Source: Fibrobacter succinogenes subsp. succinogenes S85 (GTDB taxonomy: Bacteria; Fibrobacterota; Fibrobacteria; Fibrobacterales; Fibrobacteraceae). From it: 32,000 nucleotides of DNA. The stretch is from the NCBI RefSeq assembly GCF_000146505.1, contig NC_017448.1, positions 1,770,001-1,802,000 of the forward strand. Direction: 5' to 3'. Position 1 is the first letter of the stretch. Each line of letters opens with the position of its first letter. Under the pieces are notes generated by a model. The model searched no databases. It saw nothing but the letters and a program-made list of their open reading frames with translations, and was not told the DNA's origin. The position numbers and the translations under genes are program-made. Shown here one piece after another: positions 6,331 to 31,374 of the stretch.

Positions 6331-7191
<861 letters not shown>

Positions 7192-7226
7192 TTAGGATTT
7201 TCCTATAGGAACGCTAGGCAAGAACA

Positions 7227-7255
7227 AGTTTAGAATTTGCGTCTACCCTTTTCAA
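7227..7255 (-). promoter_or_regulatory. Sigma-70-like promoter of NifH-like gene 1
   Basis: On the - strand: TTGAAA (7255-7250), 17-nt spacer, TAAACT (7232-7227). It lies inside a 44-nt block (7229-7272) identical to 22913-22956. The motif gaacgctagg (7209-7218) sits just downstream of the predicted start site. Confidence 0.5.
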
Positions 7256-7468
7256 TACTTTTTTAGCCCATTTCGTCACAATTATTCTTTTTTGCGCGTT
7301 GCTATAAAAACTTTTTATAACCCCATTCAGCGGGAATCTATTGCACGCCCAGAAAAAACATTTTTTTTAATTTTCACCCCTTGTTTCATATTGTCTTTCG
7401 CTATACCGCTTTTTAAATTTTTGCCCGAACTTCTTCGACAGGGAAGTAAAAGAATTAATCACACAACA

Positions 7469-7552
7469 GAACGCTAGGCAAACCGTTCATCATCTTCCAC
7501 ATAAACTAAATCGGTATTTACCGCTAGTTTAGCGCAAGGCTTTTATGCCTTG
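7469..7552 (+). promoter_or_regulatory. Conserved leader elements upstream of the nifB-like operon
   Basis: gaacgctagg..cgttc inverted repeat (7469-7488). Hairpin taaact (7502-7507) / agttta (7526-7531) with inner stem cggt-attt-accg. Second hairpin caaggc (7535-7540) / gccttg (7547-7552). All have counterparts at 23147-23226. Confidence 0.4.
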
Positions 7553-7587
7553 TGTTTACCACGAATCTTTTGCCTTTGTGAGGTTTT

Positions 7588-9763: not shown

Positions 9764-9773
9764 GGAGGATCTA

Positions 9774-11660: not shown

Positions 11661-12818
11661 ATGTCAAACTTCAACAATATCGAAACAAAACTCATTCACG
11701 GCGGCATTGATGGCGACAAAACTACAGGAGCTGTAAACGTCCCTATCTACCAGACTTCCACCTACAAGCAGGCAGGCCTTGGTGAAAACACGGGTTGGGA
11801 ATATTCCCGCACAGGGAACCCGACGCGCGCAGCATTGGAAACGCTGATTGCAGAACTCGAAGGAGGAGTCGCAGGCTTTGCATTTGCAAGCGGTATGGCT
11901 GCAACAACAACCGTCCTTTCGCTTTTTAAGCAAGGAGACCGCATCATCATTTCGAGCAATGTCTATGGCGGCACTTTCCGCGTTTTGGACAAAGTTTTCA
12001 AGAATCTCGGAATTACTTATTCCATCGAAGACACGACCGATTTGAAATTGCTTGAATCCAAAATAACACCCGATGTGAAAGCATTCTTTGTCGAAAGCCC
12101 TGCAAATCCGCTCTTGACGGTAACAGACTTGGCAGGCGTTGCCGCAATTGCCAAGAAGCACAACATTTTGACCATTGTCGATAACACATTTATGACGCCG
12201 TATCTGCAGCGTCCGATTGAATTGGGTGCTGACATTGTCGTGCATTCTGCGACAAAGTATTTAGGCGGTCACAGCGACTTGGTGGCAGGGCTTGCTGTTG
12301 TCAATTCCAAGGAACTCGCTGAAAGACTCGCTTTTACGCAGAACGCAACCGGTGCTGTACTCGGACCTTTTGATTCATTCCTCTTAATTCGCGGCATCAA
12401 GACGCTTGGCGTCCGCTTGGATCGTCATACTGAAAATGCCGAAACCATCGCAAAGTATCTCGAAAAGCACGAAGCCGTAAAGCACGTGTATTATCCGGGA
12501 CTCCCGACAGCACAAGGCTACGAAATCAACAAGAAACAGGCCAAGAACGGTGGCGCTATGATTTCGTTCGAACTTCGTGAAAATTACGATATCAAAAAAT
12601 TCTTCAAAGCTCTGAAACTCGTTTCTCTTGCTGAAAGCTTGGGCGGAGTCGAAAGCCTCGTGTGCCATCCAGCCACAATGACGCATGCATCTATCCCAAA
12701 GGAAATTCGCGAAAAAGTCGGCATCACTGACGGGCTCATTCGCTTATCCGTGGGCATTGAAAAAGTTGACGACATCATCGCAGATGTTAACGCAGCCATT
12801 GAAGCCGCAAAAGCATAA
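11661..12818 (+). CDS. Cys/Met-metabolism PLP enzyme, cystathionine gamma-synthase / beta- or gamma-lyase family (MetB/MetC/MccB-like)
   Basis: 385 aa. Motifs VPIYQTSTY, YSRTGNPTR and HSATKYLGGHSD (PLP Lys). SD aggag. Confidence 0.85.
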   Translation: MSNFNNIETKLIHGGIDGDKTTGAVNVPIYQTSTYKQAGLGENTGWEYSRTGNPTRAALETLIAELEGGVAGFAFASGMAATTTVLSLFKQGDRIIISSNVYGGTFRVLDKVFKNLGITYSIEDTTDLKLLESKITPDVKAFFVESPANPLLTVTDLAGVAAIAKKHNILTIVDNTFMTPYLQRPIELGADIVVHSATKYLGGHSDLVAGLAVVNSKELAERLAFTQNATGAVLGPFDSFLLIRGIKTLGVRLDRHTENAETIAKYLEKHEAVKHVYYPGLPTAQGYEINKKQAKNGGAMISFELRENYDIKKFFKALKLVSLAESLGGVESLVCHPATMTHASIPKEIREKVGITDGLIRLSVGIEKVDDIIADVNAAIEAAKA

Positions 12819-12828
12819 GGAACAAGAT

Positions 12829-13740
12829 ATGCATTACTACGAATCCATGAAATCTCTCATTGGGAAAACGCCGCTTGTAAAATTGAATCATGTTGGTGTT
12901 CCTGAAGGTGTAAATTTATTCGTAAAGCTTGAATTGTGGAACCCTTCGGGCAGCGTAAAAGACCGCGCCGGCCTTTATATGGTCGAAGACGCGTTCGCCA
13001 AAGGGACGCTCAAACCTGGCGGAACAATTATCGAAGCAACCGCAGGCAATACCGGGCTTGGAATTGCATTTGCAGCATTGAACCGCGGAGTGCGTGTCAT
13101 TTTTGTAGTACCGACAAAATTTTCGCAAGAAAAGCAGACGCTTTTGCGTGCGCTTGGCGCAGAACTCATCAACACCCCGCGTGAAGAAGGCATGCTCGGC
13201 GCCGAAAAGAAAGCAGAAGAACTGCTGAAGCAAATTCCGGATTCCATTTCTCTCAGACAATTCCACAACATGGCAAATCCGCGGGCCCATTATGAAACGA
13301 CAGGACCTGAAATTTACGATGATCTCGATGGCAACGTTGATTATGTTGTTGCAGGCGCAGGAAGCGGCGGAACGTTCTCGGGCATTCTCAAGGCGCTCAA
13401 GGAACGCAACCCCAAAATTCAAGGCGTGCTCGCTGACCCTGTAGGCTCTACAATGGGCGGTGGCGAACATGGCGACTACAATATCGAAGGAATCGGAAAC
13501 GATTTTATTGCAGACACTATGGACATGACGCTTGTAGACCGCGTCATCAAAATTAACGATGACGACGCTTTCGGTGGTTCCCGTGAACTCGCGCAAAAAG
13601 AGGGAATTTTTGCGGGATCTTCTTCGGGCGGCGCTTTCGCAGCAGCCAAGAAACTGATTGCATCGGGCGCTCGCGGGAACATTGTCTTTGTAGCCCCAGA
13701 CCGTGGCGATCGTTACTTCAGCAAAGGTTTATACAAATAA
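12829..13740 (+). CDS. Cysteine synthase / cystathionine beta-synthase family protein (MccA-like)
   Basis: 303 aa from ATG 12829 (SD taaggaa). Motifs NPSGSVKDR, EATAGNTGLGIA, GAGSGGTFSG, ADPVGS and PDRGDRYFSK. The longer ORF start at 12685 overlaps the previous gene. Confidence 0.85.
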   Translation: MHYYESMKSLIGKTPLVKLNHVGVPEGVNLFVKLELWNPSGSVKDRAGLYMVEDAFAKGTLKPGGTIIEATAGNTGLGIAFAALNRGVRVIFVVPTKFSQEKQTLLRALGAELINTPREEGMLGAEKKAEELLKQIPDSISLRQFHNMANPRAHYETTGPEIYDDLDGNVDYVVAGAGSGGTFSGILKALKERNPKIQGVLADPVGSTMGGGEHGDYNIEGIGNDFIADTMDMTLVDRVIKINDDDAFGGSRELAQKEGIFAGSSSGGAFAAAKKLIASGARGNIVFVAPDRGDRYFSKGLYK

Positions 13741-13764
13741 CATAAAAATTCATCTTTAATTAGA

Positions 13765-14646
13765 GTGCACAAGTTTATGATTAGCAAAACTGCGCTTTTA
13801 TGCGCTCTTGCCCGAGCTGTCCACACTCACGCTAAAAGTGAAAAAATTTTTGAAGACGAATTTGCACAGGATTTTGTGGGTTTGAAGGAATATCGCCACG
13901 CACGCAATCTTGCAAGGCAGTTCCTTCCTGCAAAAAAGTCGAAGTCCAAAGATTACCCGGCTAAGGATTTTATTGACCAATACCTTCTCCCCATCATTCT
14001 TCCACGAAATCGATTTGCAGAAGATATTGTCGATGCCAAGCAGAAAACAGGAGATGTGCAATACGTTCTATTGGGTGCGGGCCTAGATTCCTTTGCGCTT
14101 AGGAACAAAAGTCAAAACGTCGATGTCTTTGAACTGGATCTGTACGAAACACAAGTTTTCAAAATCGAGCGGACGCGACAACTTTTCACAAAGAGGCGTC
14201 CCAAAGTTCACTTTGTAGAAATCGATTTCAACAAGGATAGCATCATCAGCAGATTGACAAACGCTGGTTTTAATCCGAAAAAACGCTCCGTCTTTTCGAT
14301 TCTCGGCGTGTCCTACTACATTCCTATTGAAATCTTTTTCAAGACGATTGCGGAAATTTCTAAGATAGCAGCACCCAATAGTGCAATAGTATTCGATTAC
14401 TATGAAAAAGAGCGGGACAGTGCGGACAGCACAACCAAAATCAGCCGCTTAAAACAAATAACAGCATCGTGCGGCGAGTGTATGGTTGACGGATACGATC
14501 CCGTTCAAGTTGACAATTTGGCCAGGAAATCGGGTATCCAATATTGTCACGACCTTTCTCCTAAAGATATCGACGAAGCCTTTTTCAGTGCATCAACTGG
14601 ATTGTCCGCATTCGAGGGCGTTCATCTGATGTATTGCGGTTTGTAA
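13765..14646 (+). CDS. Class I SAM-dependent methyltransferase, leucine carboxyl methyltransferase (LCM)-like family
   Basis: 293 aa. Motifs ALLCALARAVH and VQYVLLGAGLDSFALRN...VFELDLYET. The start is ambiguous (GTG 13765 or ATG 13777). Confidence 0.6.
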   Translation: MHKFMISKTALLCALARAVHTHAKSEKIFEDEFAQDFVGLKEYRHARNLARQFLPAKKSKSKDYPAKDFIDQYLLPIILPRNRFAEDIVDAKQKTGDVQYVLLGAGLDSFALRNKSQNVDVFELDLYETQVFKIERTRQLFTKRRPKVHFVEIDFNKDSIISRLTNAGFNPKKRSVFSILGVSYYIPIEIFFKTIAEISKIAAPNSAIVFDYYEKERDSADSTTKISRLKQITASCGECMVDGYDPVQVDNLARKSGIQYCHDLSPKDIDEAFFSASTGLSAFEGVHLMYCGL

Positions 14647-19011: not shown

Positions 19012-20364
19012 TTATTTTCCGCCAACGGATGCGCTATAAATTTTTTCAAGCAAATTAAGCGCACCCTTATAACCGACGAAACTACGATTGATAATCAAAG
19101 TTTCGCTGGACGGAGGCGTAATTTCAAAGAACAAAGCGCCCTTATCATTGGCAAGATTGATTTCCCAAGAAGAAGCAAGAATCAACGGCTTTCCAGAAGA
19201 GAAATCAACTTCCTTGATAGCTTTTTCAATCAAGTAGCCATCTTCTTCGAATTCCACTTCAACATCGACACCTTCGCTGATGTTATGGAAAGCATCTTCG
19301 ATGGTCTTGCGGAATTTCTGCGGAGGATCGTCCGTGATAATCGCCTTGCGCGGAATAAGGCCGATTTGGTCGGCAAGGAACTTGGTGTAGGCAAGCGTGT
19401 AAGCGGAATCAGCAGTAATTGCAAATTCACTCGGCATACCGTACCAGTATTCAGCAAAGAATTCAGAGAAGTGTTCCAAATAGTAGTAATAAATACCATT
19501 TTCTTGTTCAATGAACTTTTCGCTCTGTTCCTTATCGATTCCGGCAAAATCAACAACTTTGCGGATAAATGCAGCAGTTGCTTCGGCACCGATTGGAATT
19601 TCAGGAATATGGAGGAACGGCTGACCATATTTTTTCTCAAGGTGTTCAGCATTTCTCACGCCGACCCACGGAGAGACCACCAAGTTAAACTGAGCTTCCG
19701 GAATGCGCAACCAATCCTTGACACCGTTATTTTCAGGTCCAAAGAGCACATTCACTTCAAAACCAGCGCCACGGAGAATACGGGCAAGTTCCTGGTAATC
19801 ACCGCGCCAGTTCTGGTTGTAATACGGAACTTCAAACCAAAGGTTGACAAGGCCCTTCTTGCGTTCACCCTTGTAATCGCCCACAAACTGATCGACAATA
19901 GCGTTTACCACTTCTTCGTGACCGAAAAGGTTATTGCCCTTGAAGCCTGCGGTATCCACAGCCACAATCGGGTAGCCCAAATCGCGATATTCATTCACCA
20001 AGCTGGGGACGTCATCACCAATGAGGCCGCCCACGCAACCCGTGAGAACAACATAAAGGTCGCCATCGAAAACTTTGAGTGTCGATTTGATTAACTGATC
20101 CAAAGTCTTGATGCCGCCAAACACGATATCGTTTTCGGTGGAGTTTGCGCTCGGCATGTTACCAGCACCAGCGAAAATGCTGCCCTGGAAGCCGTTTTCA
20201 AAAGTGAGGAATGCGGTTTGCTTAAGCTGGCAACCCGGAGAGCAGTTGGCTATAGGAACTGCACCCTTGATGCCGACAACCGTATTGGACGCACCAACTG
20301 CGCAAGAATAGCGGGGGTCCGAAATAGAATTGCTTTTTTTCTTTGTTTTAAGTGCTTCTGACAT
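19012..20364 (-). CDS. Nitrogenase component-1 family protein, beta-like (NifK-like), set 2
   Basis: 450 aa. Cys21 (YSCAV), Cys45 (NCSPGC), Cys110 (LTGCVGGLIGDD), DTAGFKGNNLFGHE. SD gggaga. Confidence 0.8.
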   Translation of the reverse strand: MSEALKTKKKSNSISDPRYSCAVGASNTVVGIKGAVPIANCSPGCQLKQTAFLTFENGFQGSIFAGAGNMPSANSTENDIVFGGIKTLDQLIKSTLKVFDGDLYVVLTGCVGGLIGDDVPSLVNEYRDLGYPIVAVDTAGFKGNNLFGHEEVVNAIVDQFVGDYKGERKKGLVNLWFEVPYYNQNWRGDYQELARILRGAGFEVNVLFGPENNGVKDWLRIPEAQFNLVVSPWVGVRNAEHLEKKYGQPFLHIPEIPIGAEATAAFIRKVVDFAGIDKEQSEKFIEQENGIYYYYLEHFSEFFAEYWYGMPSEFAITADSAYTLAYTKFLADQIGLIPRKAIITDDPPQKFRKTIEDAFHNISEGVDVEVEFEEDGYLIEKAIKEVDFSSGKPLILASSWEINLANDKGALFFEITPPSSETLIINRSFVGYKGALNLLEKIYSASVGGK

Positions 20365-20381
20365 TTTCGAAATCTCCCTTA

Positions 20382-21986
20382 TTATGCGTTTTCTGAATTA
20401 GATTCTTTGCCTTTGCTGAACTTGAGATTTCTCGGTTCAGGAAGGTCGTTAAGTGCTTCTGGGTGATGCGTCAAATAGAACGGATCGTCCTGAGCAAGCC
20501 ACCAATCAGAATACGGGAGTTTCACATTACGCTTGAGAACTTGGTTAAACTTTGTACGTGAAAGAACGCCCTTGAGCATTTCACCAATGCGGAGGATACC
20601 ATCGTAGCCCACCGGAATATGTTCGTCGCCCATGGTGAGGGTCGGGAATCCGAGGTGGCCCGCGACAGATGCAAGGCCCGGATGGCGAATGAGCAAGAAG
20701 TCCGTCTTGGCACGCTTCAAAAGTTGCGGAAGCTGAAAGGCGCGAGTCTTACTTACAGTATAGTGCGGAATGTCGCCGTAAGTTTCCACAAGTTCCTTCA
20801 AGGTGTCTTGATGCTTTCCAGCGCCATCGTAAATGGGGTCATGATGGAACACGAGAGCTGCATCGTGGCCTATTCCGAGTTCCGAAAGAACACTGATAAG
20901 GCCGTGAGCATAAGCAGAACCCGTCATTACGATGCCGTTTTTGCCCTTGAAAAATTCGCGAAGTTCAGCGAGCTTCGGAGCAATACGCTTATGTTCACTT
21001 TCGATATATTCTTCAGCTTCTTTTTCTTTGCCAACAACTTTTGCAATAGCGCGGAGCCATTCGTCAGTGCCCTTGATACCGTACGGCTGCGGAGCATCAA
21101 TTTGCGGAACGCCGAAGGATTCTTCAAGTGCGGTGGCCATGTAGCCACCCAAAGTATCGCAGAAAGTAGCGGTTGCAACAGCTTCAGAAGCCTGGCGGAT
21201 TTCATCGAAAGATGCAGTATCCAAGAGGTAGTTGACGCGGAGCCCAAGCGGAGCAAGCATTTCAGAGAAATAGTCCGTTCCCCAAAGAGCAACAATATTG
21301 AGCAAGTCATTTTGCTTTTTGGTCGGATGGCGATTCACGATTTGACGGAGAACGCCATGGAATGCAATGTCGAAGCCCGTGGACCAATGCTTGGAACGGA
21401 AGCCTTCGCAGTGCAGCGGAATTATAGGCACGCCAACTTCAGGTTCCATTTCTTCGGCGATGGAGTCAATATCTTCACCGATAATAGCGGTAGCGCAAGC
21501 CATGCCAATGAAAATAGCCTTGGGATTGAAACGTTCTTTTGCATCACGAATCGTTTGACGAAGCTTTTCAGAAGCACCGAACACCATGTCCTGTTCTTTC
21601 AGGTTGGTGCTGATGTTCAAAGTATTCTGCAAAGGCTTGCCACGACGCTTAAGGCCCACATGCATAGAAAGGTTGAATTTGGAGTTTTCGCCGCTGCAGC
21701 CGATCGGAGAATGGTCAATCAAAGCGCAGTCCGTGAGGTTGCCCACCTGGCACTGGACAATAGCGTTGGAACACATGGTTTCTTGGTTGAGCGGAGATTG
21801 CAATTCGCAAAGCTTACAGCCGGCCCCCTTGCCTGCGCAGCCACCGTGCTTTTTCGCGCTGCGTTCGTCGTAGGCAGATTCCTTGATCAAGTCGCTGGCT
21901 TTGCCGTCCCAACCGATAATGGTACCCAGTCGATATTCGCGGTTTTCGACCGAGGTCATATTTAAATTAATGTTAGTTGATGCCAT
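20382..21986 (-). CDS. Nitrogenase component-1 family protein, alpha-like (NifD-like), set 2, with a Cys-rich N-terminal region
   Basis: 534 aa. GNLTDCALIDHSPIGC lines up with NifD GPIKDMIHISHGPVGC. Other motifs: MACATAIIGEDID, IPLHCEGFRS, ATFCDTLGGYMATALEESFGVPQ. Seven Cys lie in about 50 residues (HGGCAGKGAGCKLCE...MCSNAIVQC...DC...GC). SD aggagg. Confidence 0.8.
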   Translation of the reverse strand: MASTNINLNMTSVENREYRLGTIIGWDGKASDLIKESAYDERSAKKHGGCAGKGAGCKLCELQSPLNQETMCSNAIVQCQVGNLTDCALIDHSPIGCSGENSKFNLSMHVGLKRRGKPLQNTLNISTNLKEQDMVFGASEKLRQTIRDAKERFNPKAIFIGMACATAIIGEDIDSIAEEMEPEVGVPIIPLHCEGFRSKHWSTGFDIAFHGVLRQIVNRHPTKKQNDLLNIVALWGTDYFSEMLAPLGLRVNYLLDTASFDEIRQASEAVATATFCDTLGGYMATALEESFGVPQIDAPQPYGIKGTDEWLRAIAKVVGKEKEAEEYIESEHKRIAPKLAELREFFKGKNGIVMTGSAYAHGLISVLSELGIGHDAALVFHHDPIYDGAGKHQDTLKELVETYGDIPHYTVSKTRAFQLPQLLKRAKTDFLLIRHPGLASVAGHLGFPTLTMGDEHIPVGYDGILRIGEMLKGVLSRTKFNQVLKRNVKLPYSDWWLAQDDPFYLTHHPEALNDLPEPRNLKFSKGKESNSENA

Positions 21987-22012
21987 AGATTTTTACCTCC
22001 TGCCGGTTCTCG

Positions 22013-22882
<870 letters not shown>

Positions 22883-22910
22883 TTACCTACAGAAACGCTA
22901 GGTTTGCGAA

Positions 22911-22939
22911 ATTTTAGAATTTGCGTCTACCCTTTTCAA
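22911..22939 (-). promoter_or_regulatory. Sigma-70-like promoter of nitrogenase-like operon 2
   Basis: On the - strand: TTGAAA (22939-22934), 17-nt spacer, TAAAAT (22916-22911), inside the 44-nt block identical to 7229-7272. The motif aaacgctagg (22893-22902) lies just downstream. Confidence 0.5.
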
Positions 22940-23146
22940 TACTTTTTTAGCCCATTCCGTTCAAAAAAATCCAATTTACAACATTGCTATAGTTTCATTT
23001 TATCACCCAATTCATTTAGTTTCTATCGCAATCAAGAAAATCGAACTTTATTTATTGTTCAAACAGGGTTTTATATTGCATTTACCTATTACGCTTTTTA
23101 AATTATGCGGGACTTCGTAACAGAAGCAAAAATTTAAAAGAATACA

Positions 23147-23226
23147 GAACGCTAGGTAACCGTTCTTTTATATAAACTAAACCGGTACGCCGGGAGTTTA
23201 GCCACGTAGAAAATTCATCTTCGTGG
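23147..23226 (+). promoter_or_regulatory. Conserved leader elements upstream of the NifX-like/GNAT/CysK-like operon
   Basis: gaacgctagg..cgttc (23147-23165). Hairpin taaact (23173-23178) / agttta (23195-23200) with inner stem ccgg-tacg-ccgg. Second hairpin ccacg (23202-23206) / cgtgg (23222-23226), followed by ttcatttt. Confidence 0.4.
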
Positions 23227-23261
23227 TTCATTTTACATCTGCGTTAAGGAGGCTTTTTTAC

Positions 23262-23672
23262 ATGGCTAAATACAAAGTAGCAGTTGCCACGAATGACGGA
23301 GTAAATGTCAATGTTCACTTTGGACACGCAGCCGCATTTGACATCTATGAAGTTGACGAAGCAAGCGGAAAATATGAGAAAGTCGAAGTCCGTTTAAAGC
23401 CGGAACATTGCGATGGTTCTTGCGGAGACGGCACTTGTGGCCAGCGCGAAGTTCAGCATTCATCGATGTATGCAGCAGCCAAGAATCTAGCCGATTTAGA
23501 TTACGTGCTTTGCGAACAGCTTGGTCCGCAAGCTATACAATCATTGGCCCGCTTCAATGTACGTGCATTCGATATTGCGCTCCCCATCAGCGAAGCCATT
23601 GCAAAAATCAACATTTACAGAAACAAAATCGCAGAACGCGCATTACGATTCAAATCAAATCACAACGACTAA
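23262..23672 (+). CDS. NifX/NifB-C-terminal-domain-like (dinitrogenase FeMo-cofactor-binding family) protein
   Basis: 136 aa from ATG 23262 (SD aaggagg). KVAVATNDGVNVNVHFGHAAAFDIYEV is typical of the NifX_NifB domain. Contains a CDGSCGDGTC insert. Confidence 0.75.
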   Translation: MAKYKVAVATNDGVNVNVHFGHAAAFDIYEVDEASGKYEKVEVRLKPEHCDGSCGDGTCGQREVQHSSMYAAAKNLADLDYVLCEQLGPQAIQSLARFNVRAFDIALPISEAIAKINIYRNKIAERALRFKSNHND

Positions 23673-23673
23673 A

Positions 23674-24174
23674 ATGAGTCTAAGCAAATTTACGATAAGA
23701 AAAGCGACGCTATCCGATTGCAATGCGATTGCCGCAGTGGAAGCAACATGCTTTCCGCCAGCAGAAGCTGCAAAACATGAAGATTTCCAAAAGCGTTTGG
23801 AACGCTATGCGGACTATTTTTTACTGATGTTCGATGGCGATAAGCTGATTTCATTCGTAGACGGATTTGTAACGGACATTCCCGATTTGAACGACAAAAT
23901 GTACGAAGACGCCGGTATGCACAATCCAAACGGAGCATGGCAAATGATATTCGGAGTCAACACTATCCCCGAATACCGCCATCAAGGTTGCGCAGAAAAG
24001 CTATTGAGATTATTCGTTCAAAATGCAAAAGTAGAAGGCAGACGTGGCGTTGTTCTCACTTGCAAAGAAAAGCTCGTACATTATTACGCCAAAATTGGTT
24101 TTGTTGATGAAGGTATTTCGGCAGATTCGACTCACGGAAACGTTGTCTGGAATCAAATGCGACTGACGTTTTAA
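23674..24174 (+). CDS. GNAT-family N-acetyltransferase
   Basis: 166 aa starting 2 nt after the NifX-like stop. Acetyl-CoA motif A: YRHQGCAEKLL. Also LTCKEKLVHYYAKIGF. Confidence 0.75.
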   Translation: MSLSKFTIRKATLSDCNAIAAVEATCFPPAEAAKHEDFQKRLERYADYFLLMFDGDKLISFVDGFVTDIPDLNDKMYEDAGMHNPNGAWQMIFGVNTIPEYRHQGCAEKLLRLFVQNAKVEGRRGVVLTCKEKLVHYYAKIGFVDEGISADSTHGNVVWNQMRLTF

Positions 24175-24189
24175 CAAAGAGAGGTAAAC

Positions 24190-25176
24190 ATGTCACATAT
24201 CCACCATTCTATTACAGAACTTATTGGGCATACACCGCTTCTTGAACTTCACAATTTCGAAAAGAACCACAACGCCCAAGGCCATATCTTGGCAAAGCTC
24301 GAATATTTCAACGCTACAGGTTCTGTCAAGGATCGCGCCGCCCTCAGCATGATTGAAGCTGCCGAACGCGAAGGGAAACTGAAACCGGGTGGAGAAATCG
24401 TTGACCTCACGAGTGGAAACACAGGCATTGCTCTTGCCGCCATCGCAGCCGCAAAAGGGTACAAAGTCACTATTTTCTTTGAATCCGGCGGTTCCAAGGA
24501 ACGCATTCAAGTTATCAAGACTTATGGCGCGCAGCTTTTCGATTACAAAGATATTCCCGAATTGAAAAAAGCTCTTGAAGACGGCACAATTTGCGACAAC
24601 ATCGTTATCGAGGCCATCACAAAGTACACCAAAGAGCACAACGCATTTTTCATCAACCAGTGCGAAAACGAATACAATCCCCTCGCCCACTACAATACCA
24701 CAGGGCCTGAAATATGGGAAGATACCGATGGCAAAGTAGATTTTGTCGTTTCGATGGCAGGCACAGGCGGAACACTGAACGGGCTTTCAAAATATTTCCG
24801 CGAAAAGAATCCGAATGTTAAAATTATCGGTGTGCAAGCGACTCCGGACTCCCGCTATTTCACGCCAGAAGCCGAAAAGAATGGCGTTATCGACGGTGTC
24901 GCACCATTTGCAAACGTCGCGGAACCTCCTACGTTTTTGACGGATTCCTCGATTTATGATGAATACATCGAAGTTTCTACATTACAGGCAAAAGCTGTAG
25001 CGCACGAACTTGCCGAACACGAAGGGCTTTTCCTGGGTACATCAAGTGCAGCAGGCGTTTACGCAGCCTCAATTGTCGCAGCGCGTCCTGAAAATAAAGA
25101 CAAGAACATCATCGTTATTACAGCCGATAACGGGTTCAAATATCTTTCCACAAAAGTTTATGCTTTGAATAAGTAA
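24190..25176 (+). CDS. PLP-dependent cysteine synthase-family paralog A (atypical CysK-like, 328 aa)
   Basis: Motifs NATGSVKDRAA, LTSGNTGIALA and MAGTGGTLNG, plus a family-atypical region GVQATPDSRYFTPEAEKNGVIDGVAPFANV. Close paralog of 28559-29545. Confidence 0.8.
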   Translation: MSHIHHSITELIGHTPLLELHNFEKNHNAQGHILAKLEYFNATGSVKDRAALSMIEAAEREGKLKPGGEIVDLTSGNTGIALAAIAAAKGYKVTIFFESGGSKERIQVIKTYGAQLFDYKDIPELKKALEDGTICDNIVIEAITKYTKEHNAFFINQCENEYNPLAHYNTTGPEIWEDTDGKVDFVVSMAGTGGTLNGLSKYFREKNPNVKIIGVQATPDSRYFTPEAEKNGVIDGVAPFANVAEPPTFLTDSSIYDEYIEVSTLQAKAVAHELAEHEGLFLGTSSAAGVYAASIVAARPENKDKNIIVITADNGFKYLSTKVYALNK

Positions 25177-25198
25177 GACTCATCGCATAAAACTCCTA

Positions 25199-25236
25199 AT
25201 ACTCCTTCTCGTTAACGCGGGAAGGAGTATTTTTAT
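25199..25236 (+). terminator. Rho-independent terminator after CysK-like A
   Basis: atactccttc (25199-25208) / gaaggagtat (25221-25230), followed by ttttat. Confidence 0.65.
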
Positions 25237-25294
25237 AAGTTCCGATAACATAAATCAATACGTATAATTGCGAGCGATAGCACCCAATACTTAA

Positions 25295-25378
25295 ACAAAA
25301 TTAGAATAAAATAATTTTAAATTATTTTGTTTTTCAATTGACAAAACTCTTTGACTGCGCAAAAGTGCTTTTTACTTT
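25295..25378 (+). promoter_or_regulatory. Operator-like inverted repeat plus promoter, copy 1 (upstream of the OMP / SBP-A genes)
   Basis: Inverted repeat acaaaat (25295-25301), 22-nt spacer, attttgt (25324-25330). Then TTGACT (25351-25356), 16-nt spacer, TACTTT (25373-25378). Paralogous to 27343-27427. Confidence 0.45.
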
Positions 25379-25419
25379 TAATCCGACATTAAAAAACAAA
25401 ACAAACAAGGAGTTTATCA

Positions 25420-26172
25420 ATGAATATCAATGCAAAAAAAATTATTTCCGTTATTGCCCTTGCCACTGTCAGTTCATTTGCTGAATGGGATTATTACACT
25501 GTTCTCGACGAACATCAGGGTCAAGCACGAATCAAGGCAAACTATTGGTACAACGGAGATTTCCATTCCACATCTTTTGACTTGAATGCCCGCTATACAG
25601 TCGTCAAAGGATTAGAATTGAGCCTCACCGGTCTCGGCTACCAGCTTTTTGCCGATCCGAATGACAAAACAAAAGAAGGTGACGGATTCAAGGACTTTAG
25701 CGTGGGTGCAAAATACGCATTCAATCCCAACTTCTCCGTTTTCTTAGACGCCAACATTCCCGCCGGAAAAAAAGAAATTTCCAGCCAGGAATTTAGCCTC
25801 AAGGGCGGTGTTCAATGGTTCTTGCCCATCTCCGAACAGTTCGGTATCGGTAATGAATTTGGCTTGACCGTTCCTTTCAAGCATGATGGAGTCCAACGCG
25901 GTCTCGTTGCTGATTATGGTTTTGAATTCTATTATGCATTCAGCTCCGGTATTTCTCCGTTTACAGGCTTTGTATTTACGAGCCAGTTGACAGATTCAAA
26001 GAACGAAGACAAATCCGAATCCGGAACGGGAGCCTCCAACATTTCTTTCTGGGCCGGCATTTCTTACAACGTTAACAAGAACGTCAATCTGACGCTTTAC
26101 ACTGATGTTGAATACGCCGCACATGGCGCTTATCAATCCGGCTACATTTTCCAAACAACATTCAGCTTCTAA
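25420..26172 (+). CDS. Small outer-membrane beta-barrel protein
   Basis: 250 aa. Signal peptide ...ALATVSSFA-EW, alternating hydrophobic pattern, C-terminal ...IFQTTFSF. SD aaggag. Confidence 0.6.
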   Translation: MNINAKKIISVIALATVSSFAEWDYYTVLDEHQGQARIKANYWYNGDFHSTSFDLNARYTVVKGLELSLTGLGYQLFADPNDKTKEGDGFKDFSVGAKYAFNPNFSVFLDANIPAGKKEISSQEFSLKGGVQWFLPISEQFGIGNEFGLTVPFKHDGVQRGLVADYGFEFYYAFSSGISPFTGFVFTSQLTDSKNEDKSESGTGASNISFWAGISYNVNKNVNLTLYTDVEYAAHGAYQSGYIFQTTFSF

Positions 26173-26188
26173 AAAGGAGGCCGCAATA

Positions 26189-27286
26189 ATGAATTTCAAA
26201 CACCTCATTAAAACAACACTTATAAGCGCTCTGCTTTTCGGAGCAAGCGCTTTCGCCGAAATTAAAACAGTTCGAATCGCACATTACACAGGAGTGTTGT
26301 GCAGTGCTCCGGTTCATACCGCATGGCTCAAAGGATTTTTCGACGAAGAGTTCAAAAAGATCGGGCAAAAATACGAAATGGTACCGATTGCCGAAGGTTC
26401 CGGTTCCGTCAACGACTTGATTGTCGCTGGGAAAGCGGACGCAGGTAATGAACTTCTCGCCACTGAACTTCAGCCTATCCAAAACGGGCTCCCGATTATC
26501 TTTGTAACAGGCGTACACACAGGCTGCACCAAGTTCTACGTCACAAAGCAATCGACCATCAAAAAACTCAAGGACCTGAAAGGGCGCAAAAGCAAAATTG
26601 GCGTCATTGGATTGTCCGACAGTTCAATTATGACATTCAAGCGAAAACTCCGTGACCTTGGTGTTGTCGCCGATGGCCCCGAAGCGGATATCGAATTCGT
26701 TGTCTATGGCGCAAGCGACTTGCCATTGGCACTCCAAAAGGGAGCCGTGGACATTATCGCCCTTCACGATCCGACCGCAACAACAGCCGAAGAAGAATAC
26801 GGTTTCCGTAAGCTTCTGGACACCGCCACCGATCCGAAATTTGCCGTAGAATACTGCTGCATCGCATTCGTGAGCCTCAAACTTTGGAAAGAAAATCCAG
26901 AAGGTGCAGCCGCATTCACACGTGCAGTCGCTCGCGGTTCCGCATTCATCAACGCTAACCCGCGTGAAGCAGCAAGACTCCAGCTTGCAAAGGACATCGT
27001 CCCCGGAAGCGAAGATTTCAACACCAAACTGCTTGAAAGCTACACCCACATTCCATCCCGCAAAGCAACGATTCGCACATTCAGAACCGTCGCCACGGAA
27101 CTCCAAAAAACGGGCGTACTCAAGAAAAAGTTGAACATCGAAAAGTTCATCACAAACCACTTTGCCAATTTTGCGTCTAAGGGGATTCACGTTCCTGACG
27201 GTTACAAGTACGATAAGGATACAGGCACATTTACAGAAACGACCGAAGAACCGAAAACCTTAGCGAAAAATATCGTTGAGAACTAA
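26189..27286 (+). CDS. ABC substrate-binding protein A, NMT1/SsuA-like (NitT/TauT family)
   Basis: 365 aa from ATG 26189 (SD aaggagg). Signal peptide ...FGASAFA-E. Close paralog of 27455-28543. Confidence 0.8.
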   Translation: MNFKHLIKTTLISALLFGASAFAEIKTVRIAHYTGVLCSAPVHTAWLKGFFDEEFKKIGQKYEMVPIAEGSGSVNDLIVAGKADAGNELLATELQPIQNGLPIIFVTGVHTGCTKFYVTKQSTIKKLKDLKGRKSKIGVIGLSDSSIMTFKRKLRDLGVVADGPEADIEFVVYGASDLPLALQKGAVDIIALHDPTATTAEEEYGFRKLLDTATDPKFAVEYCCIAFVSLKLWKENPEGAAAFTRAVARGSAFINANPREAARLQLAKDIVPGSEDFNTKLLESYTHIPSRKATIRTFRTVATELQKTGVLKKKLNIEKFITNHFANFASKGIHVPDGYKYDKDTGTFTETTEEPKTLAKNIVEN

Positions 27287-27342
27287 AAAGTAGGAGCGCA
27301 ACTAGGTTTATATAACCATAGCCTATAGCGCCCAATATACGA

Positions 27343-27427
27343 ACAAAATTAGAACAAAGTATTTTTGAATTATTTTGTTTTTCCATCTTTAAAACATCTT
27401 TGATTTAGAAAAAGTGATTTATACCTT
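27343..27427 (+). promoter_or_regulatory. Operator-like inverted repeat plus promoter, copy 2 (upstream of the SBP-B / CysK-like B genes)
   Basis: acaaaat (27343-27349), 22-nt spacer, attttgt (27372-27378). Then TTGATT (27400-27405), 16-nt spacer, TACCTT (27422-27427). Confidence 0.45.
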
Positions 27428-27454
27428 TTCACAATCAAAAATAGGGAATTAAAA

Positions 27455-28543
27455 ATGAATTTACGAAGCATCATTAAGACTACGCTCATAAGCGCCCTCC
27501 TCCTCGGAACAAGCGCTTTTGCCGATTTCAAACCAGTCCGAATCGCACACTATACTGGTGTGTTGTGTAGTGCCCCGGTTCATGTCGCTTGGCTCAAAGG
27601 TTACTTTGACGAGGAATTCAAAAAGATTGGTCAGAAATTCGAAATGGTTCCTGTTGATGCCGGAAAGAATTCTGTGAACGAGCTCATCGTCGCAGGCAAA
27701 GTCGACGCAGGGAACGACTTGCTCGCCACCGAACTTCAGCCCATTCAAAACGGGCTCCCTATCGTCTTTGTCACTGGTGTTCATACGGGTTGCACCAAGT
27801 ATTACGTCACCAAAAAATCGACGATTCAAAAGTTGGAAGATTTGAAGGGACGTAAAACCAAGGTAGGCGTTATCGGTTTATCCGATAGTTCCGTGATGTC
27901 GTTCAGACGCAAGCTTCGCGATCTAGGTATCGTCGCAGACGGCCCGGAAGCGGATGTTGAATTCATCGTCTATGGTGCAAGCGACTTGCCGATTGCCCTT
28001 GAAAAAGGTGCCGTTGACATTATCGCCCTTCATGATCCAACCGCAGCAACCGCCGAAAAAGAATATGGCTTGCGCAAGTTGCTCGACACCGCAATCGATC
28101 CGAAATTTGCCGTAGAATACTGCTGCGTCGCATTCGTGACACTCAAGCTCTGGAAGGAAAATCCGGAAGGTGCCGCCGCTTACACGCGCGCTGTCGCTCG
28201 CGGATCCGCATTCGTGAACAGCAATCCGCGCGAAGCCGCAAGACTCCAGCTCTCGAAGGATGTCGTTTCTGGCAGTGAAGAATTCAACGCCCAGTTGCTC
28301 GAAAGCTACGGTCACATTCCTTCCCGCAAGGCCGCGCTCCGCACGTTCAATATCGTCGCTGCAGAGCTTCAAAAGACGGGCGTCTTGAAGAAAAAATTGA
28401 ACATCGAAAAGTTCGTCAAGAGTCACTTTGCTGACTTCGAATCAAAGGGTATCAAAATTCCGGATGGCTACTCCTATGATAAGGCCACCGATAAATTCAC
28501 AGAAAATTTCGAAGAGCCAAAATCTCTTGTGAAAAACATTTAA
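27455..28543 (+). CDS. ABC substrate-binding protein B, NMT1/SsuA-like (NitT/TauT family)
   Basis: 362 aa. Collinear with SBP-A, for example RIAHYTGVLCSAPVH(T/V)AWLKG(F/Y)FDEEFKKIGQK. Confidence 0.8.
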   Translation: MNLRSIIKTTLISALLLGTSAFADFKPVRIAHYTGVLCSAPVHVAWLKGYFDEEFKKIGQKFEMVPVDAGKNSVNELIVAGKVDAGNDLLATELQPIQNGLPIVFVTGVHTGCTKYYVTKKSTIQKLEDLKGRKTKVGVIGLSDSSVMSFRRKLRDLGIVADGPEADVEFIVYGASDLPIALEKGAVDIIALHDPTAATAEKEYGLRKLLDTAIDPKFAVEYCCVAFVTLKLWKENPEGAAAYTRAVARGSAFVNSNPREAARLQLSKDVVSGSEEFNAQLLESYGHIPSRKAALRTFNIVAAELQKTGVLKKKLNIEKFVKSHFADFESKGIKIPDGYSYDKATDKFTENFEEPKSLVKNI

Positions 28544-28558
28544 AAAAGAGAGGTAACA

Positions 28559-29545
28559 ATGTCCAATATTCACCATTCCATTACCGAGCTCGTCGGCCAC
28601 ACTCCGCTGCTGGAGCTCCACAATTTTGAAAAGAATCACAATGCCAAGGGCCATATCCTGGCAAAACTCGAATACTTCAACCCGTCCGGCTCCGTGAAGG
28701 ACCGCGCAGCCCTCAGAATGATTGAAGAAGCCGAACGCGAAGGCAAGCTCAAGCCGGGTGGAGAAATCGTTGAAATCACAAGCGGCAACACGGGCATCGG
28801 CCTTGCCGCTATCGCCGCTGCCAAGGGCTACAAACTCACCGTTTTCTTTGAACCGGGTGGTTCTGAAGAACGCATACAAGTGATCAAGACCTATGGAGCA
28901 ACGCTCCTCGGTTACGACGCCCTTCCGAACGTAAGCAAACTCCTGAAGGAAGGCTCCTTCTCTGTTGCCGTCTTGCTCTCCGACGTCCGCAAGTATGCCG
29001 AAGAACACAATGCATTCTTCATCAACCAGATTGAAAACGAAAACAACCCGCTCGCCCATTACTACACCACCGGCCCGGAAATCGTTGCCGATACGGATGG
29101 CAAGGTAGACTTTATCGTTTCCATGGCAGGCACGGGCGGAACGCTCAATGGTCTTTCCAAGTACTTCCGCGAACACAATCCGAACGTGAAAATCGTCGGT
29201 GTGCAGGCCACTCCGGATTCCCGCTTCTTCACCCCGGAAGCTGAAGAACATGGCGTGATCGATGGTGTTGCCCCGTTCGCAAACGTTCCAGAACCGCCTC
29301 CTCTGCTGAACGATTCTTCGATCTATGACGAATACATTGAAGTCTCTACGCTCCAGGCTACAGGCGTTGCCCACGAACTCGCCGAAAAGGAAGGTCTCTT
29401 TCTCGGAACATCCGGTGCAGCAGGCATCTATGCCGCCTCCATCGTGGCTGCACGTCCTGAAAACGAAGGAAAGAACATTGTCGTTATTACAGCTGATAAC
29501 GGATTCAAGTACCTTTCCACTAAGGTGTACGCATTGAAGAAGTAA
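28559..29545 (+). CDS. PLP-dependent cysteine synthase-family paralog B (atypical CysK-like, 328 aa)
   Basis: Motifs [22 protein letters not shown] and MAGTGGTLNG. Same length as paralog A, and it shares the 5' (aaagagaggtaa) and 3' (taagactcat) flanks. Confidence 0.8.
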   Translation: MSNIHHSITELVGHTPLLELHNFEKNHNAKGHILAKLEYFNPSGSVKDRAALRMIEEAEREGKLKPGGEIVEITSGNTGIGLAAIAAAKGYKLTVFFEPGGSEERIQVIKTYGATLLGYDALPNVSKLLKEGSFSVAVLLSDVRKYAEEHNAFFINQIENENNPLAHYYTTGPEIVADTDGKVDFIVSMAGTGGTLNGLSKYFREHNPNVKIVGVQATPDSRFFTPEAEEHGVIDGVAPFANVPEPPPLLNDSSIYDEYIEVSTLQATGVAHELAEKEGLFLGTSGAAGIYAASIVAARPENEGKNIVVITADNGFKYLSTKVYALKK

Positions 29546-29559
29546 GACTCATTGTGTAC

Positions 29560-29601
29560 AAGCTCCTTCCCGTGACCTCACAAGGGGAGGAGCTTTTTTA
29601 T
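29560..29601 (+). terminator. Intrinsic terminator-like hairpin between CysK-like B and the ABC permease
   Basis: aagctccttccc (29560-29571) / ggggaggagctt (29584-29595), one mismatch, followed by ttttttatt. Confidence 0.6.
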
Positions 29602-29614
29602 TCAAGGAGTTTAA

Positions 29615-30577
29615 ATGAAGAATAAACTAATAAACACATTAAGAAGATTTTTACCCTTTTTAGGTGTTATTGTCGCACTTGCCATCCACTTGCTTATTGA
29701 AGACAGCGACGAACACCCAGAAGCTGAAGAAGCTTACTACACCTGGATTTTGTATTTCTTTTTGGCCACTACATTCATCCTCGGCATTGTCTCCACCTTT
29801 GTCAAAAAATTGAAGAAAGGCCTAGAATATTCCGGTGCGTTTTGGGGAGGCGTCGGAATCGTCGTCGCTATCATTGACATTGTCATCGGAAAGCTCGCCC
29901 TCTTCCCCGTCTTGTTTTTCCCGAAATACGACAACATTCTCGCCCAGTTTTTCGAAGGCTACGAAATCATCCTCAAGTGCATTTGGCACTCGACAAAACT
30001 TTTAGTCACAGGATTCCTCTACGGTGCCGGATTCGGCTTTATCACAGGTGTTCTCCTTGGATTCAACAAAAAGTTCAATTATTGGATCAACCCTTACATC
30101 AAGCTGATAGGCCCAATTCCCGCAACAATCTGGATTCCGATTTCGTTGACAATTTTCCCGACAACTTTTGGCGCAAGCGTTTTTATCATTGCACTTTCCG
30201 TCTGGTTCTCGGTTGCGCTTATGACGAGCTCTGCAATACAGGCTGTCCCCAAAGCCTATTTTGAAGTTTCACGCACGCTCGGCGCAAGCAGCGCTTTCCA
30301 GATTTTCCGAGTCGGCATCCCGGCCGCCATGCCCTCCATTTTCCTTGGCGTATTCTACGGCATCATCAGTGCATTCTTGGCGCTCATGACCGCAGAAATG
30401 TTCGGCGTCAAATACGGTATCGGCTGGTACATCTCCTGGCAAAAGGCCATGCTCGTCTATAGCGGTGTTTACGCAGGAATCATCGTCATTGCAGTTTACT
30501 GCATGCTCATACTCACCTTGCTCTTTAAATTGCGCGATAAAATCTTGAATTGGCAAAAGGGAACTTTGAAATGGTAG
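29615..30577 (+). CDS. ABC transporter permease, NitT/TauT family, with an N-terminal extension
   Basis: 320 aa. EAA-like loop EVSRTLGASSAFQIFRVGIPAAMPSIFLGVFYG. SD aaggag. Confidence 0.8.
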   Translation: MKNKLINTLRRFLPFLGVIVALAIHLLIEDSDEHPEAEEAYYTWILYFFLATTFILGIVSTFVKKLKKGLEYSGAFWGGVGIVVAIIDIVIGKLALFPVLFFPKYDNILAQFFEGYEIILKCIWHSTKLLVTGFLYGAGFGFITGVLLGFNKKFNYWINPYIKLIGPIPATIWIPISLTIFPTTFGASVFIIALSVWFSVALMTSSAIQAVPKAYFEVSRTLGASSAFQIFRVGIPAAMPSIFLGVFYGIISAFLALMTAEMFGVKYGIGWYISWQKAMLVYSGVYAGIIVIAVYCMLILTLLFKLRDKILNWQKGTLKW

Positions 30578-31374
30578 CAGAAAATATCGAAAACGTAAAA
30601 GGCGCAATCCACATTGATAATCTTGTAAAGACATTTATCAGTAACGAAGGCGAAACCGTCGCCGCCTTGAATGGAGTCAATCTCGACATTCCCGCAGGCA
30701 GTTTCGTGAGCCTTATCGGTCCATCCGGCTGCGGAAAGACAACGCTCTTGAGACAAATCGCAGGACTTGCCGAACCCACCTCGGGCGGCGTATTTGTCGA
30801 TGGCAAAAAAATTACGAAGCCCGGTGCCGATCGCGGTTTTGCATTCCAGCAAGCAACACTTTTCCCATGGCTCAACATCCGCGACAACATTTCGCTTGGG
30901 CTCAGGGCCCGCCACGTGTACAAGGAACACAAGCAAGACGTTGACGAATTCATCGAAACAGTCGGGCTCAAGGGATTCGAAAAATCATACCCGCACGAAC
31001 TTTCCGGCGGCATGAATCAGCGAGCAAGCCTTGCAAGAGCGCTAGTCGGCCACCCGGATATTCTCCTTTTGGACGAGCCCCTTGGTGCACTGGACGCTTT
31101 CACGCGCATGGCGATGCAAGACGAAATCCACCGCCTTTGGGAAAAGTACAAGACCACGATGGTGATGGTCACGCACGATGTCGACGAAGCGCTTTACCTC
31201 AGCAACTACGTTGTCGTGATGAAGGCCCGCCCCTCAAAAATCGAGCAGGTCATCAAAATCGAACTCCCGTTCCCGCGCGCACGAACACAGGACACGTTCA
31301 TCCAATACCGCAAAAAGATTCTCGAACTGCTAAACTTTGCAGGAAAGATTCAGGAACCGGAATACTACTTGTAG
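30571..31374 (+). CDS. ABC transporter ATP-binding protein, NitT/TauT family
   Basis: Walker A GPSGCGKTT, signature LSGGMNQR, Walker B LLLDEPLGALD. ATG 30571 overlaps the permease stop (atggtag). The TTG start at 30550 is less likely. Confidence 0.85.
   Translation: MVAENIENVKGAIHIDNLVKTFISNEGETVAALNGVNLDIPAGSFVSLIGPSGCGKTTLLRQIAGLAEPTSGGVFVDGKKITKPGADRGFAFQQATLFPWLNIRDNISLGLRARHVYKEHKQDVDEFIETVGLKGFEKSYPHELSGGMNQRASLARALVGHPDILLLDEPLGALDAFTRMAMQDEIHRLWEKYKTTMVMVTHDVDEALYLSNYVVVMKARPSKIEQVIKIELPFPRARTQDTFIQYRKKILELLNFAGKIQEPEYYL

Follow-up and report, generated by a model that had tools for sequence, protein, structure and literature searches.

Methylthio-alkane reductase (MAR, MarHDK) is a nitrogenase-like enzyme of Group IV-C, and the enzyme of Rhodospirillum rubrum has been solved by cryo-electron microscopy (PDB 9FMG). 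MAR is described as cutting C-S bonds of methyl thioethers reductively and as being induced when sulfate is limiting. In the MAR pathway, methanethiol and O-acetylhomoserine are converted to methionine by O-acetylhomoserine sulfhydrylase. Nitrogenase-like genes encoding Cys275, those of Fibrobacteres included, have been linked to cysteine synthase/O-acetylhomoserine sulfhydrylase genes (Dos Santos et al. 2012, PMC3464626), and a 2026 review regarded functional MAR systems as likely in Fibrobacter. Earlier Fibrobacter papers listed nifH, nifD and nifK but regarded them as questionable nif genes of an organism that does not fix N2. Here, we analysed a 32,000-nt stretch of the Fibrobacter succinogenes S85 genome (the window; the match was 100% identical), which contains two nitrogenase-like gene sets. 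Set 1 comprises nifH copy 1, K1 and D1 (K1D1). Set 2, the main subject of this work, encodes an Fe protein, an alpha and a beta subunit, and faces genes for a NifX-like protein, a GNAT acetyltransferase and a 328-aa enzyme of the cysteine synthase family (CysK328a). Set 2 is very probably the S85 ortholog of MarHDK, accompanied by a NifX carrier and a strain-variable GNAT/CysK328 cassette.

Genes were annotated from an open reading frame (ORF) listing together with Pfam and NCBIfam scans of the window, and each window gene at 19012-31374 showed 100% amino-acid identity to the CP001792.1 locus. The gene inventory of the initial annotation was accurate: the H/alpha/beta operon on the minus strand, with short gaps and Shine-Dalgarno sequences, and the divergent NifX-like, GNAT and 328-aa CysK-like genes, tightly packed in one operon, are all in place, and all quoted motifs (HSPIGC, MACATAIIGEDID, ATFCDTLGGYM, HWSTGFDIAFH and KVAVATNDGVNVNVHFGHAAAFDIYEV) were found. 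The features are as follows.

18951-18931, minus strand: terminator-like hairpin and T-run 3' of the beta gene, predicted to end the marHDK transcript
19012-20364, minus strand: marK-like gene, beta subunit of 450 aa
20382-21986, minus strand: marD-like gene, alpha subunit of 534 aa
22013-22858, minus strand: marH (nifH copy 2), Fe protein of 281 aa
22859-23261, no strand assigned: divergent promoter region between marH and nifX (H2<>nifX spacer)
23262-23672, plus strand: NifX-like protein of 136 aa with a Nitro_FeMo-Co domain
23674-24174, plus strand: GNAT acetyltransferase of 166 aa
24190-25176, plus strand: CysK328a, a 328-aa PALP enzyme, 15 nt after the GNAT gene
25420-31374, plus strand: remaining cassette genes, for an outer-membrane protein, two NMT1-type binding proteins, CysK328b, ABC permease and ABC ATPase
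28559-29545, plus strand: CysK328b, within the transporter operon

The H-to-alpha gap is 26 nt (Shine-Dalgarno sequence GGAGG) and the alpha-to-beta gap is 17 nt (AAGGGAG). The start of the NifX-like gene was placed at the ATG at 23262, with AAGGAGG upstream, and not at the GTG at 23223 given by the ORF finder; the GNAT ATG lies 2 nt past the last base of the NifX stop codon (a gap of 1 nt). Pfam matches across set 2 and the divergent genes were Oxidored_nitro (twice), Fer4_NifH, Nitro_FeMo-Co, GNAT and PALP.

In the PDB sequence search, S85 MarD matched R. rubrum MarD (9fmg_A and 9d9u_A) with an E-value of 5e-183, whereas the top-scoring true nitrogenase alpha chain, representing the next family, reached 2e-36. 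The two MarD proteins share 54% identity over 502 aa. MarK matched R. rubrum MarK (9d9u_C/9fmg) with an E-value of 2e-150. The P-cluster ligands C66, C91 and C158 of R. rubrum MarD correspond to C72, C97 and C164 in S85 and are invariant in 16 orthologs, and C32, C56 and C121 of MarK correspond to C21, C45 and C110. The [Fe8S9C]-cluster ligands C270 and H429, the latter lying on a MarD-specific loop according to the structure paper, align with C276 and H435, again invariant among the 16 orthologs. The active-site residues H194, W195, S196, F199, F374 and H375 are found as H200, W201, S202, F205, F380 and H381; S85 MarDK retains the full set of cluster ligands and active-site residues listed in the structure papers. 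The initial annotation had pointed to HWSTGFDIAFH in place of the NifD motif. This stretch matches the active-site H-W-S..F of MAR and can be read as a MAR signature, in which Trp and Phe replace Gln191 and His195 of nitrogenase. Judged by these alignments, the set 2 reductase appears to be an ordinary member of the MAR family, not a new kind of reductase.

That the operon is a minimal true nitrogenase nifHDK fixing N2, as in older genome papers, is hardly credible, although nifH, nifD and nifK were listed for Fibrobacter and the Fe protein passes the nifH equivalog cut-off. MarH scored 422 bits with Fer4_NifH and 458 bits with TIGR01287 (cut-off 394); it shares 99% amino-acid identity and ~95% DNA identity with nifH copy 1, and the best solved relative of both Fe proteins is Clostridium pasteurianum NifH. 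The alpha subunit, however, scored 138 bits against the 654-bit cut-off of the nifD equivalog model and the beta subunit 64 bits against 427 for nifK. The similarity of alpha to true NifD reached an E-value of 1e-31 at best, versus 5e-183 for MarD, the equivalents of Gln191/His195 are Trp/Phe as in MAR, nifEN was not found in the window, and N2 fixation by S85 has never been shown in the literature. Because both Fe proteins pass the nifH equivalog model, nifH-based surveys of rumen diazotrophy or H2 production would pick up these genes and count a non-diazotroph as an N fixer.

Several points weigh against taking set 2 as a full counterpart of the characterised enzyme and its neighbours as mere accessories. 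Three of the four predicted substrate-channel residues differ (M70I, Y98F and I101S) and only the Cys is kept (I76, C79, F104 and S107 in S85), so the substrate range is not certain, and the real substrate of S85 MAR may not be dimethyl sulfide (DMS) or methylthioethanol. The channel residues M70, C73, Y98 and I101, found in enzymes active on DMS, ethyl methyl sulfide and methylthioethanol, were proposed in the literature to tune specificity, not to define the family. In Rhodopseudomonas palustris, NflDK3 is 52-56% identical to MarDK1 and was inactive on all tested substrates (bioRxiv 10.64898/2026.08.20.746119); it is a fair caveat that the 54% identity between S85 and R. rubrum MarD is about the distance of inactive NflDK3 from R. 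palustris MarDK1. Moreover, nifX, GNAT and CysK328a are separated by only 1 and 15 nt, a tight packing that speaks for co-expression in S85 and thereby leaves room for a functional tie of the trio.

The initial annotation had drawn attention to an N-terminal stretch of seven Cys in the alpha subunit and raised an extra Fe-S cluster. The stretch is present (C50, C57, C60, C72, C79, C87 and C97); among the 16 MarD orthologs, C50, C57, C72 and C97 are invariant and C60, C79 and C87 are each found in 14. C72 and C97 are P-cluster ligands, and C79 aligns with the active-site Cys73 of R. rubrum MarD. Three Cys also precede the E(L/M)xSP motif in R. rubrum MarD, whose N-terminus is a flexible lid, but their spacing differs from that in Fibrobacter. 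Since the iron content of R. rubrum Mar(DK)2 (32.6 +/- 5.3 Fe) is explained by two P-clusters plus two [Fe8S9C]-clusters and the spacing of the free Cys differs, the extra cluster was dropped as unsupported.

MAR loci were surveyed with one genome per species. From 400 MarD relatives the best 80 loci were kept, gene orders were obtained by tblastn with all window proteins, and the 48 species-level loci with enough flank were counted (18 Fibrobacter and 30 other loci; 23 Bacteroidales among them). MAR loci were widespread, occurring in Fibrobacter, Bacteroidales, Ruminococcus and Succinivibrio. MarD of rumen Paludibacteraceae, Prevotellaceae and Segatella bryantii (L032-L068) was 77-87% identical to Fibrobacter MarD; such similarity greatly exceeds what the relationship of the phyla would lead one to expect and suggests that mar genes were recently transferred horizontally in the rumen. 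NifX and MarB were each present in 41/48 loci, an ordinary CysK in 21 (20 of the 23 Bacteroidales), GNAT in three and CysK328 in one.

NifX is therefore a genuine, regular and conserved component of MAR loci, and the suggestion that a NifX-like cofactor carrier partners the reductase was borne out both by this count and by R. palustris, in which the NifX homolog is essential for growth on DMS or dimethylsulfoniopropionate (DMSP). The typical order was nifX-marB divergent from marH-marD-marK-OMP-SBP-ABC (OMP, outer-membrane protein; SBP, binding protein) in most Fibrobacter genomes, cysK-marB-marH-nifX-marD-marK followed by cystathionine-type genes in Bacteroidales, marD-marK-nifX-marB-marH in Ruminococcus and nifX-marB-marDKH in Succinivibrio, and the NifX domain is fused to NifB in Clostridium kluyveri. 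S85 NifX scored 50.5 bits with Nitro_FeMo-Co (cut-off 26.3) and 31 bits with the nifX equivalog model TIGR02663 (cut-off 112); because it exceeds the domain cut-off and misses that of TIGR02663, it is best classed as a NifX/NafY/NifB-C-type carrier domain protein and not as an equivalog NifX. A Cys-rich insert (HCDGSCGDGTCG) in S85 NifX was also found in the long NifX 3' of Firmicutes K1D1-type genes (L086 11774-12190; L094 10789-11223), and was missing from the short NifX of the same Firmicutes operons and of a Ruminococcus mar locus (L077). MarB is defined as a NifB without the NifX domain; S85 marB scored 268 bits with TIGR01290 (nifB), over the radical-SAM (SAM, S-adenosylmethionine) part only. 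It is the only NifB-like maturase gene in the window and lies apart from set 2, and its product presumably acts for both sets of reductase genes.

The low counts of GNAT (3/48) and CysK328 (1/48) contradict the idea that NifX-GNAT-CysK is a conserved module linked to the reductase. The S85 order from nifX-GNAT-CysK328a onward recurred in one metagenome-assembled genome (MAG) only (L015). Another Fibrobacter MAG (L005), with MarD 99% identical, lacks the whole block nifX-GNAT-CysK328a-OMP-SBP-SBP-CysK328b-ABC. Its marH faces aminotransferase, LysR, DUF4418, FtsX and ABC genes (7519-9973 of that locus). Because these genes lie just past the ABC ATPase gene in S85, the nifX-to-ATPase block (window 22859-31374) is an 8.5-kb indel between near-identical strains. 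GNAT and CysK328 belong to a strain-variable accessory cassette that became linked to set 2 only recently, and this link is not conserved.

The remainder of the window, which its gene content marks as a sulfur-assimilation island, contains the following features; a WYL regulator and an MnmA gene are also included.

1375-2661, plus strand: O-acetylhomoserine sulfhydrylase gene (TIGR01326, 614 bits; cut-off 495)
2687-3619: bona fide cysK (462 bits)
4935-6017: YhgA-like transposase-family gene, adjoining nifH copy 1 at the edge of the rearranged region
6331-7176, minus strand: nifH copy 1 (H1), divergent from marB-K1-D1
7588-8460, plus strand: marB, NifB-like radical SAM maturase of 290 aa
8453-9763, plus strand: K1
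9774-11243, plus strand: D1 (K-then-D order)
11661-14646: cystathionine gamma-lyase-like, CysK/CBS-like and SAM-dependent methyltransferase genes
between the 11661-14646 run and set 2, minus strand: SsuA-type ABC transporter and outer-membrane protein genes

The initial annotation had envisaged direct capture of a released thiol or sulfide by an amino-acid backbone. This was right in kind but not new, since it is the known MAR pathway and the sulfhydrylase gene lies in the window (1375-2661). Homologs of this gene stand directly beside mar genes in five loci (L030, L066, L073, L081 and L083). The cystathionine-type pair at 11661-13740 has similar pairs 3' of marK in most Bacteroidales loci, and both pyridoxal phosphate (PLP) enzymes of the 11661-14646 run score just below their equivalog cut-offs. 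A methionine-to-cysteine module in the window is plausible. The run resembles the methionine-to-cysteine operon yrrT-mtnN-mccA-mccB of Bacillus subtilis. The CysK/CBS-like ORF overlaps the preceding gene by 134 nt, and its true start is therefore probably further downstream.

D1 of set 1 shares only 32% identity with MarD, although no other solved protein is a closer relative (E-value 1e-90). D1 retains the aligned P-cluster and Cys/His cofactor ligands and has CEGFKSRIWASGFD in place of CEGFRSKHWSTGFD. Orthologs were found in Ruminococcus flavefaciens and Lachnospira multipara, with D and K 61% and 56% identical to D1 and K1. Based on these comparisons, K1D1 represents a separate, uncharacterised Mar-like clade. 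An assignment of set 1 as isethionate reductase (Group IV-F) was considered unlikely, as K1D1 keeps the P-cluster and L-cluster ligands that this enzyme is said to lack. The Fibrobacter MAG RGIG10307 shows the single-strand arrangement nifH<>marB-nifX-K1-D1-GNAT-CysK328-OMP-SBP-SBP-ABC, and a pair of LanC-like and PALP genes lies close by.

The H2<>nifX spacer aligned over its whole length with the H1<>marB spacer (7177-7587), and an 86%-identical 80-nt block of the two spacers adjoins nifH. The motif GAACGCTAGG (8 matches versus 1.4 expected) occurs as two direct copies per spacer, ~255 nt apart, and nowhere else in the non-coding DNA of the window; its downstream copy is part of a GAACG-N9-CGTTC palindrome, a candidate operator. 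A sigma-70 promoter scan gave 14 sites versus 11.8 in shuffles, which is no excess; the one site of note falls within the conserved block next to nifH. Scanning the entire window against Rfam returned no riboswitch or other RNA family. In S85, the marB and K1 genes overlap without an intervening nifX, and nifX stands without marB, whereas relatives keep marB-nifX together. The pattern resembles the outcome of a duplication, of recombination of the paralogous nifH<>marB-nifX regions with each other and, afterwards, of reciprocal loss. Since a second version of the marB promoter region apparently drives nifX-GNAT-CysK328a, these genes may plausibly be co-regulated with the reductases. The claimed coupling to the reductase therefore stands as far as the tight operon and the shared, duplicated divergent promoter region are concerned, but the GNAT/CysK328 linkage is not conserved. 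A 71-nt AT-rich repeat (80% identical) was also observed upstream of the outer-membrane protein gene (25277-25347) and of the second binding-protein gene (27325-27395), and could serve the cassette as a duplicated promoter or operator.

CysK328a scored 235 bits with PALP, and its 259 bits with NCBIfam cysK (TIGR01139; cut-off 351) and 277 bits with cysKM (cut-off 344) are below the cut-offs. The enzyme was accordingly well described as atypical for cysteine synthases, scoring below all curated cut-offs, whereas the true CysK of the window reaches 462 bits. It keeps the catalytic lysine (SVKDR), the TSGNTG loop and GTGGT, and is 80% identical to its paralog CysK328b. In a neighbour-joining tree, CysK328a, CysK328b and their relatives formed a superclade apart from housekeeping CysK, with two subclades. 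Members of one subclade (CysK332) lie inside K1D1-type operons, such as those of R. flavefaciens and L. multipara with the order marB-nifX-nifH-CysK332-D-K-nifX. In the subclade of Fibrobacter CysK328, the relatives adjoin LanC-like genes in every non-Fibrobacter case examined. CysK328 relatives (49-58% identical) were seen beside a LanC-like gene of 440-477 aa at L085, L088, L092, L093, L095, L098 and L090 (12397-14855). Such pairs occur in Streptococcus gallolyticus, Lachnospiraceae, Clostridium and a Fibrobacter MAG, sometimes with an NMT1-type ABC transporter, and a literature search for LanC-like proteins together with cysteine synthase found no description of the pair.

The matches listed in a metagenome scan with a CysK328-clade alignment were nearly all generic CysK genes (37-50% identity), and 40 loci of at least 8 kb with such genes were taken from among them as a baseline. 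NifH, NifD or NifK occurred in 0/40 of them, marB plus nifX in 1/40 (a Fibrobacter-like locus carrying a housekeeping CysK) and a LanC-like gene in 1/40 (the only locus of the 50%-identity class). Because generic CysK loci show such neighbours in only 0-1/40 cases, the neighbourhoods of the CysK328 clade are non-random, and they do not point specifically at MarHDK. We tentatively suggest, with low confidence, that CysK328a and CysK328b belong to a distinct clade of cysteine synthase paralogs partnering enzymes that make or break thioether C-S bonds. The partners might, equally tentatively, be LanC-like proteins in many Firmicutes and K1D1-type reductases in Fibrobacter, Ruminococcus, Lachnospira and some Bacteroidales. 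If so, the clade would mark an oxygen-independent salvage of S-substituted amino acids or related thioethers, in which the CysK paralog would act on the sulfur group, by exchange or by capture, and an acetyltransferase would modify the amino acid, and it would hint at the substrate of the K1D1 reductase group.

The GNAT protein matched Pfam Acetyltransf_9, _10 and _1. Its family is very large (7455 matches at E<=1e-10, many of them 65-69% identical and from gut bacteria). The one context examined among them, that of a 69%-identical homolog, contained LytR and FMN reductase genes and no sulfur or nitrogenase-like genes. A Ruminococcus homolog (41-47%) near mar is paired with a ThiF-family gene, with a LysR gene between the homolog and marD. 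The GNAT gene directly 5' of CysK328 in RGIG10307 (L090 4819-5307) is non-orthologous to that of S85 (a 52-residue local match with 29% identity), reflecting either coincidence or non-orthologous replacement. The PDB sequence search gave weak matches (E about 1e-5) to GNAT domains of CurA/GphF and to serotonin N-acetyltransferase, too weak for a function to be drawn from them.

Two other readings of the cassette were weighed. In one, NifX-GNAT-CysK328a is dedicated to set 2, with CysK328a joining the released thiol or sulfide to O-acetylserine (e.g., to give S-methylcysteine) and GNAT acetylating the substrate or product. The chemistry would allow this, as the conserved catalytic Lys, TSGNTG loop and GTGGT leave aminoacrylate chemistry intact, and the tight three-gene operon shares its duplicated divergent promoter region with marH. 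CysK-family genes also recur in nitrogenase-like operons of three phyla: cysK-marB-marH-nifX-marDK in 20/23 Bacteroidales loci, a CysK328-like gene between nifX and marD in L063, and CysK332 inside the R. flavefaciens and L. multipara operons. We nevertheless regard a dedicated trio as unlikely. It stands beside marHDK in S85 and one MAG only of the 18 informative Fibrobacter loci and in 0/30 others, and is absent beside the 99%-identical marHDK of L005. The closest non-Fibrobacter CysK328 relatives adjoin LanC-like genes and no reductase, the nearest non-Fibrobacter GNAT homolog with its context examined (69% identical) sits in an unrelated context, and the known methanethiol sink, O-acetylhomoserine sulfhydrylase, is already encoded in the window.

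The other reading ties the cassette functionally to K1D1 (8453-11243), from which it would have been separated in S85 by recombination between the paralogous nifH<>marB-nifX regions. This is possible, though we do not favour it. RGIG10307 has GNAT-CysK328-transporter directly 3' of K1-D1, but its GNAT is not orthologous to that of S85. The K1D1 orthologs of R. flavefaciens and L. multipara carry an in-operon CysK paralog followed by a long NifX, but these operon-embedded CysK332 genes fall in another subclade than CysK328. The Cys-rich insert common to S85 NifX and K1D1-linked NifX, and the apparent reciprocal loss that left S85 marB without nifX and nifX without marB, also speak for the tie. 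It draws on a handful of loci, however, and about 16 Fibrobacter loci have nifX, marB and marHDK with no K1D1 within 10 kb.

By homology with the R. rubrum enzyme, an S85 MAR with a strain-variable cassette would work as follows. MarH would hydrolyse ATP and pass electrons via the MarDK P-cluster to the [Fe8S9C] L-type cluster, which would reductively cut C-S bonds of small methyl thioethers to yield methanethiol and a hydrocarbon. Methanethiol would be converted to methionine by the O-acetylhomoserine sulfhydrylase (1375-2661), and methionine sulfur could be passed to cysteine by the cystathionine-type pair (11661-13740). NifX, expressed from the duplicated marB promoter region, would shuttle the MarB-made cluster to MarDK and probably also to K1D1. 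GNAT, CysK328a, the outer-membrane protein, the two binding proteins, CysK328b and the ABC transporter would form a strain-variable cassette for organosulfur uptake and assimilation, which might have come to lie behind nifX through rearrangement of a fluid sulfur island. The cassette would probably be co-induced by sulfur limitation, and MAR function would not depend on it.

The long-puzzling "nif" genes of a model rumen cellulose degrader would thus be re-labelled as encoding a sulfur-scavenging C-S reductase. The widespread occurrence of MAR, whose turnover of methylated sulfur compounds gives methane or ethylene plus methanethiol, may matter for rumen sulfur and trace-gas chemistry. The kind of enzyme and the thiol-fixing logic of the mechanism in the initial annotation were already known; new here are the CysK-paralog clade tied to LanC-like and K1D1-type genes and the second, uncharacterised reductase set. 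The clade could help to assign a substrate to an uncharacterised nitrogenase-like group.

Compared with known systems, CysK328a shares with the O-acetylserine sulfhydrylases of the CysK/CysM family the PLP lysine, the TSGNTG substrate loop and the GTGGT phosphate loop, and is about 35-45% identical to solved CysK enzymes. It differs in insertions around residues 118-140 and 220-245, in scoring below all NCBIfam cut-offs and in forming a clade apart from the housekeeping CysK of the window. The 11661-14646 run has cystathionine gamma-lyase-like, CysK/CBS-like and SAM methyltransferase genes together, as in yrrT-mtnN-mccA-mccB of B. subtilis, but no MtnN gene was seen.

R. rubrum MarBHDK is similar in its H, D and K subunits, all six P-cluster cysteines, the Cys/His ligands of [Fe8S9C], the H-W-S..F and F-H residues, a NifB-like MarB without the NifX domain, and a locus within a sulfur-assimilation island with O-acetylhomoserine sulfhydrylase. 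S85 differs in having a MarD only 54% identical with three of four channel residues changed, marB 14 kb away beside the second reductase set, a stand-alone NifX, and an Fe protein nearer to clostridial NifH than to any other solved Fe protein. From the R. palustris Mar1/Mar2/NflDK3 loci (bioRxiv 10.64898/2026.08.20.746119), S85 differs in that K1D1 is a separate clade (32% identity to MarD) and not a Mar duplicate, and GNAT or CysK328-type genes are not described there. Both organisms have several Mar-like sets per sulfur island, near-identical MarH copies (94% in R. palustris and 99% in S85), one set split into H-B and K-D parts, and a separate NifX homolog linked to the system (RPA2355 in R. 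palustris).

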